29,198 bases of DNA. Origin: Bacillota bacterium (lineage in GTDB: Bacteria; Bacillota; Desulfitisporia; Desulfitisporales; JAWSUQ01). The notes beneath the pieces were generated by a model. The model worked only from the letters and a program-made list of their open reading frames with translations. It was not told where the DNA came from and did no database searches. Position 1 is the first letter of the stretch. Each line of letters opens with the position of its first letter. The DNA lies in NCBI GenBank assembly GCA_033549265.1, contig JAWSUQ010000001.1:1-29198 (forward strand), written 5' to 3'. The position numbers were made by a program, and so were the translations under genes. This document shows positions 2,199-14,617 of this stretch, piece by piece.

Positions 2199-4037
2199 AT
2201 GTGCGGATTTGTGGGCTTTGCTGACGCTAACTTAGAAATAGATAAGATGAAAACAATTGAAAGCATGATGAACACAATAATTCATAGGGGCCCTGATAGC
2301 GGAGGGGTATATTCAGATGAAAAGGTAACTTTAGGATTTAGACGGCTGATGATTATAGATCTATCGGAAGATGCAAGCCAACCAATGTATAATGAAGACA
2401 AAAGCTGTGTTTTGGTTTTCAATGGGGAAATATACAACTATCAGGAATTAAGAGCAGATTTAATTGCTAAAGGGCATGTTTTTGTTAGTAATAGTGATAG
2501 TGAAGTAATTCTACACGGTTACGAAGAGTATGGCGTGGAACTGCTGCAAAAGGTAAGGGGAATGTTCGCATTTGCTATTTGGGATACAAACAGCGAATCA
2601 ATGCTTTTAGCCAGGGATTTTTTTGGTATAAAACCATTGTACTATTCTCAGAATACAGTAGACAACTCCCTTATCTTTGGCTCAGAAATTAAATCATTTT
2701 TGAAGCAACCAGCCTTTAAAAAAGAGCTAAATAAAAATGCCTTAAGGCCCTATTTAACCTTTCAATATTCAGTACTAGACGAAACCTTTTTCAAAGGTGT
2801 GTATAAATTAAAGCCTGGTCACTATATGCTGTACAAAAAAGGCCAGCTAGAACTTAAGCGCTACTGGGAATCCAGGTTTGATGAAGAGGGTAATAGCTTA
2901 GAGTATTATGTAGAGCAAATTAAACAAACTATGAGGGAATCGGTTAATTATCATAAAATTAGTGATGTCAAAGTAGGCTCATTTTTATCAGGAGGCATAG
3001 ACTCCAGTTATATTACCGCATTACTAATGCCAAATAAGACTTTTTCGGTGGGTTTTCACGACTATGAAGCAATGTTTAACGAAACTAAATTGGCTAAAGA
3101 ATTATCGGATATCTTAAAAATAGAAAATAATAGGTATATTATTAGCGCAGATGATTGCTTTGAAAAGTTGCCAACTATTTTATATCATATGGATGAGCCC
3201 CAATCAAATCCTTCTGCAGTCCCGTTATACTTTTTGGCAGGACTTGCTAGTGAATATGTAACAGTAGTGTTGTCCGGTGAAGGTGCCGATGAAATATTTG
3301 GAGGGTACCCTTGGTATCAAAACTCGAAATTAATGGCAAAATATGAGAAAATTCCTTTTGCGATTCGCCGCCCTATTTCTTTATTATGTCAAAGACTGCC
3401 AAAAAACAAATTCACTGGATTTTTGGAAAAGGGCGGGAAAAGGGTGGAAGAGAAATTTATTGGGGAAGCCAAGGTGTTTGAGGAAAATGATGCTCTCTCC
3501 GTTTTGAAAGATGAATATAAAAAAGGTCCCTCTGTCCAAAGTATTACTAAAAAAGTATACGATGAAGTAAAGGGTGAGGATGACGTTACTAAAATGCAGT
3601 ATCTTGACATAAACTTATGGCTTCCTGGAGATATTCTTTTGAAAGCTGATAAAATGAGTATGGCCCATTCCCTTGAATTAAGAGTCCCGTTCCTAGATAA
3701 AGAAGTAATGTCATTAGCATCCCGGATACCAAGTGAACAGAGAGTTAACAGTATAAATACCAAGTATGCCTTAAGAATTGCGGCAAATGAAACATTGCCA
3801 GATGAGTGGGCAAAAAGACCAAAACTAGGCTTTCCAGTACCTATTAGATATTGGATGCGGGAGCAGAAATACTATGATATGATTAAGGAAATGTTTCAAT
3901 CAGAAATGGCTAAAGAGTTCTTTAATACTGAGGAGCTTGTTAGATATCTAGATGAGCATTATACCAGCAAAAAAAATTATGCAAGGTATATTTGGACAGT
4001 GTATGTTTTTCTTGTATGGTACAAAAAGTTTTTTTAG
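2199..4037 (+). CDS. asnB: Asparagine synthase-like glutamine amidotransferase (AsnB/AsnH family), likely peptidoglycan amidase-forming enzyme
   Basis: N-terminal MCG nucleophile, HRGPD, NGEIYN, SGGIDSS, SGEGADEIFGGY, SLELRVPFLD, KLGFPVP; GAGGTG RBS. Confidence 0.93.
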   Translation: MCGFVGFADANLEIDKMKTIESMMNTIIHRGPDSGGVYSDEKVTLGFRRLMIIDLSEDASQPMYNEDKSCVLVFNGEIYNYQELRADLIAKGHVFVSNSDSEVILHGYEEYGVELLQKVRGMFAFAIWDTNSESMLLARDFFGIKPLYYSQNTVDNSLIFGSEIKSFLKQPAFKKELNKNALRPYLTFQYSVLDETFFKGVYKLKPGHYMLYKKGQLELKRYWESRFDEEGNSLEYYVEQIKQTMRESVNYHKISDVKVGSFLSGGIDSSYITALLMPNKTFSVGFHDYEAMFNETKLAKELSDILKIENNRYIISADDCFEKLPTILYHMDEPQSNPSAVPLYFLAGLASEYVTVVLSGEGADEIFGGYPWYQNSKLMAKYEKIPFAIRRPISLLCQRLPKNKFTGFLEKGGKRVEEKFIGEAKVFEENDALSVLKDEYKKGPSVQSITKKVYDEVKGEDDVTKMQYLDINLWLPGDILLKADKMSMAHSLELRVPFLDKEVMSLASRIPSEQRVNSINTKYALRIAANETLPDEWAKRPKLGFPVPIRYWMREQKYYDMIKEMFQSEMAKEFFNTEELVRYLDEHYTSKKNYARYIWTVYVFLVWYKKFF

Positions 4038-4062
4038 AAACCAATGGAGTTGAAGATATTTC

Positions 4063-5292
4063 ATGAAAAAGTTAGACTTTGTTCCAGTAATACTAGGTAG
4101 CGATGTTAATGCCTACGGCATGGCAAAATCATTTCATCAGCAATATGGTGTAAAAAGCGTGGCTGTTGGTAAAGCACAACTTTTTGCTACCAACTATTCT
4201 AAAATAATAACAGTTGATGTGTGTGATGATTTTGATCATCCCGATGTTTTTGTTCCTAAGCTTATTTCTGTTGCAAAAGAGCTAAAAAAGACCACAGCTA
4301 AACTTGTCCTAATTGCTAGCAGTGACAATTACGTAGAGCTTATCGTCAGAAATAAGGAGGTATTAGCAGAGTATTATGTTACTCCTTTTGTTGATGAAGA
4401 TTTATTGAATTGCTTAATATATAAAGAGAAGTTTTATGAAACCTGTGACAAGCATAATTTAGATTACCCTAAGACTGTTATTTGCACTAAGGAAAATAAA
4501 GATCAACTTCAGTTACCATTTGAATTTCCGGTAGTTGTGAAGCCATCAGATAGCTTGTTATATGCTAACTGTTCCTTTGCTGGCAAAAAAAAGGCTTATG
4601 TTCTACAGGATAAAAAGGGCTTTAAAGAAGTTATAAATAAAATATATTCCACTAGCTATGATAAAAATTTGATTATTCAAGAGTATATTCCAGGCGACGA
4701 TACTGCAATGCGAGTTCTAAACTGTTATTGCGGACAAGATAAAAAAGTAAAAATGATGTGTCTTGGTAGGCCGCTTTTAGAAGATTATACTCCAGTATTA
4801 ATTGGCAACTATACCGCAATTATTAATGAGTATAATGAAGAAATTTATAGTAAGTACAAGGATTTTTTAGAACAGATTGGTTACATTGGCTATGCTAATA
4901 TTGATATGAAATACGATGAACGAGATGGAAAATATAAAGTGTTTGAAATAAATTTGCGGCAAGGAAGAAGCAGCTACTTTGTCACTGGAAGTGGATATAA
5001 CTTAGCTAAATATTTAGTAGAAGATTATGTATACAACGGCGGCTCGTCAGAGTTAGTTTTGGGAAGAAATGAATCTCTTTGGTTAGGAATACCTAAGGGG
5101 GTATTGCTCAAATACCTTGAAGATGAAGAGCTTAAAGCTTACGTGCAAAAACTTATAAAACAAAAGAAATACTGCTATACCTTATACTACAATAAGGATT
5201 TTAACCTCATAAGATATCTAAAAAATAGCTTGTATTATCAAGCCTATCACAAAAGATATGCCCAATACTTTAAAAACAGAGATATTGACTAA
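4063..5292 (+). CDS. asl: ATP-grasp D-aspartate ligase (Asl/YxbA family)
   Basis: PVILGSDVNAYGMAKSF, FPVVVKP, IIQEYIPGDDTAMRVLNCY, MMCLGRPLLED, DMKYDERDG, FEINLRQGRSSYF closely match my recall of Enterococcus faecium Aslfm. Confidence 0.88.
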   Translation: MKKLDFVPVILGSDVNAYGMAKSFHQQYGVKSVAVGKAQLFATNYSKIITVDVCDDFDHPDVFVPKLISVAKELKKTTAKLVLIASSDNYVELIVRNKEVLAEYYVTPFVDEDLLNCLIYKEKFYETCDKHNLDYPKTVICTKENKDQLQLPFEFPVVVKPSDSLLYANCSFAGKKKAYVLQDKKGFKEVINKIYSTSYDKNLIIQEYIPGDDTAMRVLNCYCGQDKKVKMMCLGRPLLEDYTPVLIGNYTAIINEYNEEIYSKYKDFLEQIGYIGYANIDMKYDERDGKYKVFEINLRQGRSSYFVTGSGYNLAKYLVEDYVYNGGSSELVLGRNESLWLGIPKGVLLKYLEDEELKAYVQKLIKQKKYCYTLYYNKDFNLIRYLKNSLYYQAYHKRYAQYFKNRDID

Positions 5293-5356
5293 TTTTCTTT
5301 CTTTAGCTAAACAGCAACTGACAAAAGTTGACTTAAGTTTCGGAGGGGGGATTATC

Positions 5357-6439
5357 GTGCCACTTTTAGACAAGACAAATATTGAAAAAGTAGAAAAGTA
5401 TAATAATTTCGTGAGAAAATCAGAATTTGCATCTGCAACCCAAGATATCAATTGGTCATTAGTTAAGAAAGATTGGGATAATGAACAGGTCTTTATTGAA
5501 CAAGATGGTAAAATTGTTGCAGCTATGTCACTGCTAATAAAAAGAGTTTTGGGCAACTATGCTATGATATATGTTCCGAGAGGTCCTGTATGTGACATTT
5601 ACAATAAAGATTTAGTGAATGAGCTGGTCCTAGAGGTGCAGCCAGTGGCCCATAAGTATAATGCCTTTATGCTGAGGTTTGATCCAGAGGTAAATTATGA
5701 TAAAAGCCTTGGCGAAATGTATGGGGAATTAGGTTTTATAGTAAGAAACCTGGGACTTAGCAAGGACGACTTTATCCAGCCAAGATATAATATGGTTTTA
5801 GATATAGAAAATTTAGATGAAGATGGGGTCTTGAAAAAGTTTAGCAAGAAAACGCGGTATAACATTGGTTTGGCATCCCGCAAGGGCGTTATTGTTAATT
5901 ATTATAATAGTGATGAGGCATTAGAAATATTTTATGAGTTGCATGAAATTATGGGGAAAAGAAATAAGATAGCCATTAGGCCCCTTCAGTATTTTAAAGA
6001 TATGAGGGTTGCCTTTGGCCAGCAATTGAGAATATATATAACAGAGCATGAGGGAGACTATTTATCTGCGGCAATAGCTATTAGCTATGGAAAAAAAGTT
6101 TGGTATATTTACGGTGCCAGCTCCAACGAAAAAAGAAATTTTATGCCTAACTATATTATGCAATGGGAAATGATTAAGTGGGCTTTGGAACAAGGCGCCA
6201 CTAAATATGATTTTGGCGGGGTTTTTGAGCTGAACCATAGCGACGGTTTGTATAAATTTAAAGAGGGATTTTGTTACACTGACGGTGCTACAGAGCTGAT
6301 TGGAGAATTTGACAAGGTATACAAACCCTTAGTTTATTACTCTTTCACCAAATTAGTACCGAAAGTCCAAAAATTGAGGAAGAGCTTAAATACAGTAAAA
6401 TGCTTAGGTAGAGGAGGAAAGAATGAGAAGGATAGTTAG
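5357..6439 (+). CDS. femX: FemABX-family aminoacyl-tRNA-dependent peptidoglycan bridge transferase (short FemX type, no coiled coil)
   Basis: TQDINW..VK..W, IVAAMSLL, YVPRGPV, LRFDPEV, IQPRYNMVLD, WYIYGASS, YDFGG, LYKFKEGF, IGEFD; start moved to GTG 5357 behind GGAGGGGGG RBS, giving MPLL... like the N-terminus of Weissella FemX as recalled. Confidence 0.9.
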   Translation: MPLLDKTNIEKVEKYNNFVRKSEFASATQDINWSLVKKDWDNEQVFIEQDGKIVAAMSLLIKRVLGNYAMIYVPRGPVCDIYNKDLVNELVLEVQPVAHKYNAFMLRFDPEVNYDKSLGEMYGELGFIVRNLGLSKDDFIQPRYNMVLDIENLDEDGVLKKFSKKTRYNIGLASRKGVIVNYYNSDEALEIFYELHEIMGKRNKIAIRPLQYFKDMRVAFGQQLRIYITEHEGDYLSAAIAISYGKKVWYIYGASSNEKRNFMPNYIMQWEMIKWALEQGATKYDFGGVFELNHSDGLYKFKEGFCYTDGATELIGEFDKVYKPLVYYSFTKLVPKVQKLRKSLNTVKCLGRGGKNEKDS

Positions 6440-7483
6440 ATTTGTTTTTTTTTGCTCATAATCATCCTTCTATTTATGGGAGGTAGGACTGTTACTGATG
6501 TGCTTTTGATGACAAAGCAAGGTGTTATCACTGTTGTTAGTATTGATGCTATTAGCCAGTTGCCTATCAAAAATGTAGAATATCTAATTATTGATTATGA
6601 CACTCATGAGCTGGTGGAAAAGCTGAGCACTAATGAAAATGGCAGTGCAACCTCAAGCTTGCTGGACTATGGAAAAACATATGTCATCAGGCAACATAGG
6701 GTGAAGCCACCTTATGATTATTCAAAAGAAGTTGAACAATTACTTACAATCGATAATGAGATTCACCATTTCATAGCAGAACATAGCTGGCTAGACTATA
6801 TTAAAGAAGTTAGTCGTACTGCAGATGGGGAACTTATTATTAGAGAAGTATATATACCGGTCCCAACTATATTGCAAAAGCCGGAACTGCCAAACGGTTG
6901 TGAGATTACTTCCTTAACAGCTGTATTAAATTATTATGGCTACAGTGTCACAAAAACTGAGATGTCAGATGACTTTTTGCCAAAGCAACCTTTTGTTTAT
7001 CGAGATGGTAAATTATATGGTGCTGACCCTTATTTGGCATACTCTGGCAATCCAAGAAATAGCTATGGCACTGGTTCAGCAAATTACGGCGGGTGGTTTA
7101 CTTATCCTCCTCCAGTAATTGAAGCTGCTAAAAAGTACATTATGAGCAGCGAAGGTGTACATAGTGCTGTAGATATATCTGGAAGTGACCCGGAAGATAT
7201 TATAGAGCTATTAAATCAGGGTATTCCTGTGGTGACTTGGATGACATTAGACTTGGATGAGCCAAGATTTTTGGGCTACTCATGGTATTTACATGATAGT
7301 GAAATAATATTTAATCCACCGGTGAATCTTCATGCTACAGTTATAAATGGGTATGTGGATGATAGATTGCATGTAATGGATCCATTAAAGGGACAAGTTA
7401 TTTATGATGCCAATACATTTTTTAATAGCTATGATGCCTTGGGAAGTCATGCTATGATAGTTGTCAATCAAATACATGATTAA
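6423..7483 (+). CDS. Membrane-anchored C39-like (Peptidase_C39_2) cysteine peptidase with SpaA/prealbumin-like Ig domain; reading frame broken at T9 tract 6445-6453
   Basis: QKPELPNGCEITS (Gln, Cys), NLHATV (His), VMDP (Asp); TNENG...L.YG.TY Ig-like pattern; AGAGGAGG RBS before ATG 6423 whose frame stops at TAA 6459-6461, while the long ORF continues from 6452. Confidence 0.78.
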
Positions 7484-7495
7484 GAAGGTGCAGCA

Positions 7496-8221
7496 ATGGA
7501 ACACAAACTATTAGGAATTTTAGGTGGAATGGGACCTAAGGCTACCTCAGTTTTTTTTGATAAAATTATAGAATATACAATTTCTAAGCGGGATCAGGAT
7601 CATATTGATATTCTAATCCTTAATCATGCTACATTGCCTGATAGGACTAGTACTATTCTAGAGCATAGAGAAGAACAATTTTTAGAATTAATTGAGAAGG
7701 ATATTAGGCTTTTTGAGCTGGCAGGAGTCTCGAATATTGCTATACCTTGCAATACTACACATTTTTTTCACAGCAAGATGCAGGAAATGACAGAAATAAA
7801 TATAATTAATATGGTAAATGAAACAATTAAAGAGATATACGCGAAATATGGCGAGAGTAGTAAAATTGGCATCTTGGCAACTAATGGTACCATCAACAGT
7901 GGAGTATATAGTGAGGAGTGCAAAAAATACAATCTGGAGTTACATGTTCCGGAAGAAGCGATGCAAGAAAAAGTTATGAAAATAATTTATGAGGATGTAA
8001 AAGGCGATTTAGATGCTGACCCTACTGAGCTAGAAGCAATCATAAATGAACTTGTTTATAAAGAAAATTGTGTTTGTGTTATATTAGCATGTACTGAATT
8101 ATCTTGTATCCAAATAAGCTATAAAACAAAAAAATATTGTATCGATGCCATGGAGGTACTAATCAAGAAATCTATAATATTATCTGGCAAGAAGTATGGA
8201 AAAGAACTAGAGTCTAGATAA
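7496..8221 (+). CDS. racD: Aspartate racemase (cofactor-independent Asp/Glu racemase family)
   Basis: LGILGGMGPKAT, DQDHI, both catalytic cysteines in IPCNTTH and LACTELS, GILATNGT. Confidence 0.9.
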   Translation: MEHKLLGILGGMGPKATSVFFDKIIEYTISKRDQDHIDILILNHATLPDRTSTILEHREEQFLELIEKDIRLFELAGVSNIAIPCNTTHFFHSKMQEMTEINIINMVNETIKEIYAKYGESSKIGILATNGTINSGVYSEECKKYNLELHVPEEAMQEKVMKIIYEDVKGDLDADPTELEAIINELVYKENCVCVILACTELSCIQISYKTKKYCIDAMEVLIKKSIILSGKKYGKELESR

Positions 8222-8506: not shown

Positions 8507-9265
8507 ATGAGAAAAAATGACCGCAAAAAAAACAGAGAAGAGAATAAAGGGGAATCTGGTTGGCTGTTGACTTATGCTGATATGATTACCTTAGTTTTAA
8601 CGTTCTTTATCCTTCTTTATACAATGTCCACAATAGATGTTATAAAATTTTCCCAAGTAGTTGCTTCTGTAAAAGGTTCTTTAGGAGTGATAGATGGCGG
8701 AAGAACAATCGAGTCAGAGCCCTTAAATGATATGGGTGAGATGGAAGACGAAATTTTGCAGATGTTAAAGGATTGGGAAGAGGAAGAAGATACTATTAGA
8801 GATATAGTTATTAGGCTAGAAGCATTACTAGAAGTTGAACAAATTCAGGATGCTGTCCGTATTCTAGTAGATGAAAGGGGCATTAATATTAGGTTCTTGG
8901 ATCATGTGCTATTTGATAGAGGTAGGGCAGAGCTGAAGCCCGAAGCAAAACCGCTACTAGATGAAGTGTACAATATTATCAGTGAGCTTGACAATCAAAT
9001 TAGAGTAGAGGGTTATACATGCGACTTGCCAAGTAATACGGTGGAATTTCCTACAAATTGGGAACTATCAACTAGAAGAGCGACTAATGTTTTAAGATAT
9101 TTACATGAAAAAGGAGTAGATGGTGAACGGCTCTCAGCGGTGGGTTATGGTGAGTATCGCCCATTAGTTCCTAATACTAATGAAGCTCAACGGCGCCAAA
9201 ATCGAAGAGCCGATATAATTATTTTAAGGGAAAATTATATGGAAGATTTGGATGATAGAAATTAA
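8507..9265 (+). CDS. motB: MotB/MotS-family stator protein with OmpA-like domain, no adjacent motA
   Basis: WLLTYADMITLVLTFFILLY transmembrane helix with conserved Asp, DERG, LFDRGRAEL, TNWELSTRRA, GYGEYRP, NRRADI. Confidence 0.92.
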   Translation: MRKNDRKKNREENKGESGWLLTYADMITLVLTFFILLYTMSTIDVIKFSQVVASVKGSLGVIDGGRTIESEPLNDMGEMEDEILQMLKDWEEEEDTIRDIVIRLEALLEVEQIQDAVRILVDERGINIRFLDHVLFDRGRAELKPEAKPLLDEVYNIISELDNQIRVEGYTCDLPSNTVEFPTNWELSTRRATNVLRYLHEKGVDGERLSAVGYGEYRPLVPNTNEAQRRQNRRADIIILRENYMEDLDDRN

Positions 9266-14505: not shown

Positions 14506-14617
14506 TCCCTTTAAGTTGGTCCTGTGAGGCTAATAAGGGAGTGTAGGTTGCCTATTAGATTTTATTAACTTTAGGTAAGTTATTCTTCCTAGCCTTTTCA
14601 GGTTAGGATTTTTTTTT
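14506..14617 (+). promoter_or_regulatory. PyrR attenuator 2 upstream of pyrB
   Basis: TCCCTTTAAGTT-GGTCCTGTGAGGCT-AATAAGGGA binding loop (14506-14540); terminator TCCTAGCC-ttttca-GGTTAGGA-T9 (14587-14617). Confidence 0.9.

Follow-up and report, generated by a model that had tools for sequence, protein, structure and literature searches.

Homopolymeric contingency loci vary by slipped-strand mispairing in 5' coding regions, as in pilC of Neisseria and the poly-G/C genes of Campylobacter and Haemophilus, and most documented homopolymer switches are poly-G/C tracts in Gram-negative pathogens. At the RNA level, transcriptional slippage can join two reading frames, which is known for mxiE of Shigella flexneri (a U run with one inserted nucleotide), dnaX of Thermus thermophilus (A9) and insertion sequence elements (PMC1088944), and tssM1 of Citrobacter rodentium (A11) is likewise rescued by transcriptional slippage (PMC4256274). 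Runs of nine A or nine T readily cause slippage, and coding regions are under selection against them (PMC1088944). With the RNA polymerase of E. coli, the insertion of U rescues -1 reporters to 5% at T7 and 10% at T8, the values rising with length and with a bias toward poly(T) (PMC6260861). On the ribosome, the sequence U_UU.U_UU.U is listed as shift-prone and gives more than 0.1% of -1 frameshifting without a stimulator (PMC4066793). Furthermore, frameshifted genes are reported to be rescued by polymerase infidelity at poly(A/T) tracts and by savior indels, with examples from endosymbionts (PMC3017870 and the review PMC5009743). For the protein family concerned, the YvpB-like Peptidase_C39_2 proteins, there is no member with an experimentally known substrate, and a literature search for YvpB or C39-like proteins in peptidoglycan returned no functional study or substrate.

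The locus described here lies in a window of 29,198 nucleotides, i.e., the whole stretch of DNA that was analysed, at the start of contig JAWSUQ010000001.1 of a Bacillota bacterium. It features a run of nine T's near the start of a gene for a C39-like peptidase (Table 1) and shares with contingency loci the long mononucleotide run just past the start of an exported protein, the frame toggle by a single base and the intactness of the remaining gene. Unlike these loci, the tract is a poly-T run made of Phe/Leu codons within a membrane anchor, is not conserved in the homologues and is the lone locus of its kind in the genome. The resemblance to mxiE, dnaX and tssM1 consists in an A/T run of nine, overlapping frames and a longer functional product which requires one untemplated nucleotide. 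Those sites, however, are conserved among relatives and were demonstrated by cDNA or mass spectrometry, and the short product of the present one would be a 12-residue peptide of no evident use. With the endosymbiont cases, it has in common that a gene without other defects is frameshifted within a long A/T run and may be partly corrected at the RNA level; those cases concern reduced, AT-rich genomes with many tracts, in contrast to a single case in a genome of free-living type with 39% G+C.

Table 1. Features at and around the T9 tract (positions in the window)
Feature	Position	Strand	Remarks
Asparagine-synthase-like and ATP-grasp genes	2199..5292	+	same cluster
FemAB/FemX-like gene	5258..6439	+	directly upstream; 3' end including the stop overlaps the start of the peptidase gene
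Shine-Dalgarno site AGAGGAGG	6410..6417	+	5 nt upstream of ATG 6423
12-codon frame MRRIVRFVFFCS-stop	6423..6461	+	TAA at 6459-6461; runs across the nine T's
T9 homopolymer	6445..6453	+	written in Val-Phe-Phe-(Leu) anchor codons
U_UUU_UUU heptamer	6446..6452	+	zero frame of ATG 6423; slippery X_XXZ_ZZN type
Peptidase gene body	6452..7483	+	343 codons from TTG 6452; second anchor half, SpaA-like Ig domain, Peptidase_C39_2 domain
GTG in frame with the body	6500..6502	+	GGGAGG 16 nt upstream, a poor spacing
Public-record product of this contig	6509..7483	+	324 aa from ATG 6509; no anchor, no Shine-Dalgarno site
Asp/Glu-type racemase gene	7496..8221	+	13 nt downstream, same operon

The C-terminal domain of the encoded protein matches Peptidase_C39_2 (Pfam PF13529) with 81.2 bits against a gathering cut-off of 24. 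Its only solved relative is PDB 3ERV, a structural-genomics "putative C39-like peptidase", which was matched at E = 7e-16 and in a profile search at E = 2e-29. The YvpB-like Peptidase_C39_2 proteins, among them 3ERV, have the same C-terminal domain, and their conserved Cys and His are kept here. In contrast to them, the subfamily of the present protein additionally has an anchor as well as a SpaA-like Ig domain and occurs in a MurE/AsnB/ATP-grasp/FemX cluster. This N-terminal domain is of the SpaA-like prealbumin/Ig type and akin to the Ig-like repeats of Gram-positive collagen adhesins; the likeness to extracellular domains argues for a need of export. All 33 residues which are invariant in a 37-sequence family alignment are retained in the body, including the catalytic-domain residues Cys (C150) and His (H294), and this complete retention argues that the gene is not an old pseudogene. 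The gene belongs to a tight, co-oriented cluster with MurE-like, asparagine-synthase-like, ATP-grasp and FemAB/FemX-like genes ahead of it and the Asp/Glu-type racemase gene, a small open reading frame (ORF) and a MotB/OmpA-like gene behind it, where the FemAB/FemX-like gene probably has its real start at GTG 5357. Homologues elsewhere feature the same genes directly upstream, either MurE and AsnB or AsnB, a gene of ATP-grasp size and FemAB. Based on gene neighbourhood and domain architecture, it is reasonable to assume that the peptidase would act on the cell wall outside the membrane.

Two frames meet at the tract. The strongest Shine-Dalgarno site of the whole operon belongs to ATG 6423 (6423-6425), from which the codons read ATG AGA AGG ATA GTT AGA TTT GTT TTT TTT TGC TCA TAA, with the T9 tract beginning 22 nt past the start. 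The stop of the FemX-like ORF is the TAG at 6437-6439, so that this gene and the one starting at ATG 6423 overlap by 17 nt. The frame of the long ORF is open from 6440, with TTG 6452 as its earliest start, and lies at -1 relative to ATG 6423; the two frames overlap at 6440-6461, where the T9 run stands in the sense strand, and T10 or T7 would join both. The N-terminus of the joined protein reads MRRIVRFVFF-X-LIIILLFMGGR, with X at the break. The junction peptide across the break in the joined protein is RFVFFLLIIILLFMGGR. In the assembled state, the stretch 6423..6461 holds the true start together with the basic n-region and half of the anchor, namely the first, which a missing T separates from the body. 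None of the starts TTG 6452, ATG 6476 and ATG 6509 is preceded by a Shine-Dalgarno site, and GTG 6500 would be a weak start for an anchorless form at best. The first-pass annotation had named the ribosome binding site, the start at ATG 6423 overlapping the femX stop and the frame across nine T's to a stop codon, all of which are present in the sequence. It was equally right in denying TTG 6452 a usable ribosome binding site, while its weak internal start near GTG 6500 does have a GGGAGG motif, but at an unfavourable distance.

Comparison with homologues, the closest of which shows 55% identity, explains what the break separates. Their N-termini open with basic residues, after which comes a single uninterrupted hydrophobic segment that often ends in GG, and VRFVFF-x-LIIILLFMGGR aligns across the break with the homologue segments LRFTLFLVFTIVVIFFGG, VRFIIFVLVLSIIVFTGG and LRFTLFLMFVIAIILNGGR. 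Since both joined halves align to one anchor segment of the homologues, ATG 6423 is the true start of the gene, which is one base short in this assembly. The anchor form restored by T10 or T7, as proposed in the first reading of the sequence, hence agrees with the anchors of the family, and the proposal that T9 puts the anchor out of frame holds for its first hydrophobic half as well as for the basic n-region and the start codon. A strongly hydrophobic N-terminal window of 15 residues was found in 105 of 119 homologues. Four of the exceptions were re-examined at the DNA level, and in all four the start had been placed too far downstream, the anchor being encoded in frame ahead of it; recurrent anchor frameshifts among the homologues were rejected on these grounds. 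In terms of hydropathy, the best 15-residue window of the joined form reaches 3.2 versus 1.9 for a protein starting at TTG 6452, which is left with about 8 hydrophobic residues and no basic n-region. An in-frame N-terminal anchor is accordingly typical of this Peptidase_C39_2 subfamily and is broken here by T9.

Whether the arrangement exceeds chance was addressed by a genome-wide search for runs where the change of one base joins a Shine-Dalgarno-bearing start to an ORF of at least 150 codons. Such joining occurs for approximately 0.13% of the 6- and 7-mers in the genome and for 2 of 138 strand-instances of runs of at least nine. Besides the present tract, this genome-wide search for contingency loci gave only one more match, which abuts a 10-N scaffold gap, and the idea that the genome holds a whole family of such loci was rejected for that reason. 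The decisive evidence for a frameshift beyond chance is the homology across the break. At the equivalent place of eight homologous loci, T5 or T6 is the longest run and the anchors are in frame, and this absence of a long T run from all eight (8/8), which corresponds to one half of the refuting condition given in the first-pass annotation, speaks against an evolved switch. The out-of-frame layout was likewise found in none of the homologues examined, a weak comparison in that the nearest is only 55% identical and silent on the species itself. The tract has the length (about seven or more), the location in the 5' coding region and the one-unit toggle between a full-length and a truncated product which are characteristic of contingency loci; a tract shared by related genes or several such loci in this genome were not found. 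MutS was found in the genome. Further copies were sought as well: the exact protein clusters with no other and occurs on a single contig, no relative turned up among JGI metagenome contigs in a peptide-pattern scan, and a DNA pattern with the exact flanks and T6-T12 allowed found nothing in metagenome contigs or contigs of species-representative genomes. No public sequencing run covering the region was listed. Among related genomes, distant matches were present in only 2 of 40, and these cover part of the protein at 28% and 41% identity.

The quality of the assembly bears on such a one-base difference. The genome is a metagenome bin of 499 contigs and 2.95 Mb with 93.5% completeness and scaffold gaps of 10 N. 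No run of at least nine was found in it which separates two frames of at least 80 codons, and both candidates for split ORFs among the 8-mers are ordinary gene junctions. In contrast to such splitting, approximately 28 runs of at least nine lie inside long-ORF coding calls (crude calls), and nine 9-mers are in frame in the middle of ORFs with at least 80 open codons on either side. As the long runs within genes do not split ORFs, general miscounting of homopolymers is not the pattern here, and a genome-wide homopolymer error was rejected. Other T9/T10 runs are present in the genome, for example at 14609-14617. Long A/T runs are avoided in coding regions: the coding share drops from 80% for 5-mers via 43% for 9-mers to 33% for runs of ten or more, and run counts fall 8.5-fold from 8-mers to 9-mers. 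Baranov et al. read such a depletion as selection against slippage-prone runs (PMC1088944).

The assembled sequence by itself is compatible with a reversible switch, a one-off mutation and an assembly miscount alike, and the intact Shine-Dalgarno site, start and body fit a very recent mutation no better than a recoding site under maintenance or an error of the assembly. The reading which we prefer, at about an even chance of being correct, is a real slip from T10 to T9 which is incidental, reversible in principle and leaky, with the export of the enzyme switched off. Against this stands the rather improbable case of an assembly or sequencing miscount, in which the gene is ordinary and intact in the organism, with T10, and one T was lost from the consensus. 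Consensus indels are commonest at long homopolymers, the gene shows no further defect, one miscount could arise in a fragmented bin if its depth were low, and the other apparent homopolymer frameshift of the genome adjoins a scaffold gap. However, no other run of at least eight in 2.9 Mb causes a frameshift between long ORFs, and the many long runs kept in frame do not resemble the pattern of an error-prone platform. Moreover, the 10-N gaps suggest paired short-read scaffolds, in which a majority miscall of T10 would be uncommon. The first-pass annotation had treated an assembly error or a recent mutation as equally possible; this caveat stands as such, with the error side somewhat weakened by the clean homopolymers.

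An evolved device, either a selected T9/T10 contingency locus or a fixed T9 with programmed slippage or -1 frameshifting that sets an on/off state or a ratio, is to be judged just as improbable as a miscount. The layout is classic: the tract lies near the start of a gene for a surface enzyme that is exported, the strong Shine-Dalgarno site and the body are preserved, and the zero-frame stop follows two codons past the tract. In addition, nine T's equal the length of mxiE-type slippage in Shigella (PMC1088944), the tssM case of Citrobacter was rescued likewise (PMC4256274), and U_UUU_UUU is a recognised -1 motif. In the form of a fixed T9 with programmed decoding, the device would hold an enzyme of potential autolytic activity at a low level. 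The case for an evolved device is weakened by the homologous loci and the genome search described above and by the surroundings of the slippery site, which were examined for a hairpin or pseudoknot 5-9 nt downstream or a Shine-Dalgarno-like element about 10 nt upstream as stimulators of -1 frameshifting. The downstream sequence folds no better than its shuffles (z = 0.18), the only small hairpin begins 13 nt past the site, and the nearest upstream Shine-Dalgarno site ends approximately 29 nt before the heptamer. Neither an intrinsic terminator nor a promoter was predicted at the T run. In a more specific form, to which we attach little probability, T9 would be native and fixed, and the anchored peptidase would arise only from transcripts with one additional U or from -1 slips on U_UUU_UUU. 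If this were true, initiation at the strong ribosome binding site would yield the 12-residue peptide for the most part, along with wall-active enzyme in a small and fixed amount, possibly with a polar effect on the downstream racemase gene. A Bacillota-type bacterium would then have a recoding-based throttle within one of its operons for the peptidoglycan cross-bridge. Least probable, and in our view very unlikely, is a native T9 whose functional product starts inside the body at TTG 6452, ATG 6476, GTG 6500 or ATG 6509, giving a short-anchored or cytoplasmic enzyme. The database gene call does use ATG 6509, and coupling or re-initiation is conceivable with TTG 6452 at 13 nt past the femX stop and ATG 6476 at 15 nt past the stop of the 12-codon frame; yet no usable Shine-Dalgarno site precedes any of the four starts, the remnant left at TTG 6452 is a poor anchor, the homologues all have full ones, and the Ig-like N-terminal domain argues for export.

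Returning to the T10-to-T9 slip, the gene for the membrane-anchored protein with SpaA-like and C39-like domains would start at ATG 6423 and need ten T's at 6445, of which the assembly has nine. The difference corresponds to a one-base deletion of the type which replication slippage would produce in long homopolymers. In the T9 state, ribosomes recruited by the strong Shine-Dalgarno site would make the 12-residue peptide and then stop, while the body would be left without a usable start or a complete anchor, so that export of the enzyme would essentially be off. The T10 version reads GTT TTT TTT TTG, i.e., Val-Phe-Phe-Leu in a hydrophobic helix, and the run probably arose passively from the Phe/Leu codons of the anchor in a genome of this G+C content and not as a conserved, selected switch. 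Due to the hypermutability of T9 and T10, the off state would be reversible in the population via replication slippage. The gene may also leak, as one extra U added by RNA polymerase, or a -1 slip on U_UUU_UUU at 6446-6452, would yield exactly the T10 protein. This leak probably lies between a few percent and about ten percent and would be mostly transcriptional, an estimate derived from slippage rates of E. coli and not of this organism. Slipped-strand phase variation or transcriptional slippage toggling the enzyme, as suggested in the first-pass annotation, is physically plausible, because runs of nine T's are slippage-prone at the levels of DNA, RNA and ribosome (PMC1088944, PMC6260861, PMC4066793). 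We infer that T9 is real in the organism and arose by slippage, with leak and reversion. More speculatively, closure of the 1-kb peptidase frame could exert polarity on the racemase gene behind it.

Biologically, the locus is a single putative instance of a well-known phenomenon, as slippage-prone frameshifts are familiar. In practical terms, the comparison offers a corrected gene model, in which the gene starts at ATG 6423 instead of the ATG 6509 of the public record and encodes a membrane-anchored enzyme, frameshifted in this assembly. The four database homologues whose anchors are hidden by a start placed too far downstream serve as a warning in the same respect. If T9 is real, the export of an enzyme of a cell-wall operon would depend, in the population of this bacterium, on one base of a hypermutable run. 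The locus would then be a simple example from nature of how a wall-active enzyme of a Bacillota-type bacterium is expressed in an on/off or leaky manner.

The annotated starts of four database homologues of the C39_2 protein (P0003, P0031, P0060, and P0021; loci L010, L011, L012, and L013, genes at 1501) were found to lie too late, and an upstream in-frame start gives back the normal basic-hydrophobic anchor in all four. The true start of the FemAB/FemX-like gene in the window is probably GTG 5357 instead of ATG 5258. The sequence GGAGGGGGG is located immediately 5' of the GTG, ATG 5258 is without a Shine-Dalgarno site, and the version of the gene starting there shares 35 nt with the ATP-grasp gene. 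The alignment of the ORF to the NCBIfam FemX model begins at residue 34. The 393-aa product had no exact match in the protein collection. A small hairpin within the C39_2 gene would mask the GGGAGG 5' of the internal start candidate GTG 6500; it showed no improvement over shuffled controls.

Throughout the genome, the coding share of A/T runs declines with their length, from 80% for 5-mers to 43% for 9-mers and 33% for runs of at least 10, and 9-mers are 8.5-fold fewer than 8-mers, a depletion consistent with selection against slippage-prone runs. A T10 run on contig C355 is accompanied by an apparent frameshift close to the start of a 374-codon ORF, which is most likely a scaffolding artefact.

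Locations of features in the window, its genome (G000) and a homologous locus
Feature	Location	Remark
Start region of FemAB/FemX-like gene	window 5258-5420
Small hairpin, 7 bp	window 6466-6483	CCUUCUA/UGGGAGG
Racemase gene	window 7496-8221
MotB/OmpA-like gene	window 8507-9265	same operon as C39_2 gene
T10 run	G000:C355:2387-2396	adjoins 10-N scaffold gap
Second Peptidase_C39_2 match in genome	G000:C462:1233-1541	weak, 23 bits; short contig
MotB_plug/OmpA and C39_2 genes	L013:433-2508	MotB_plug/OmpA gene comes first

With 185.7 bits against the NCBIfam CuyB model (cysteate racemase), the racemase fell slightly short of that model's threshold of 190, and its score for the general Asp-type racemase subfamily was nearly equal at 184.6 bits. 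The C462 match may represent a partial paralogue. The C39_2 gene is accompanied by a MotB/OmpA-like gene in the window and by a MotB_plug/OmpA gene at one homologous locus, so that a link between the two families is possible.

Across several metagenomic lineages that are not related to one another (loci L004, L005, L007, L011, and L012), C39_2 homologues lie immediately 3' of MurE-like and AsnB-like genes, or of AsnB, a 406-aa gene and FemAB. According to these recurring neighbours, the anchored C39_2 peptidase is a conserved member of the wall-precursor cluster.
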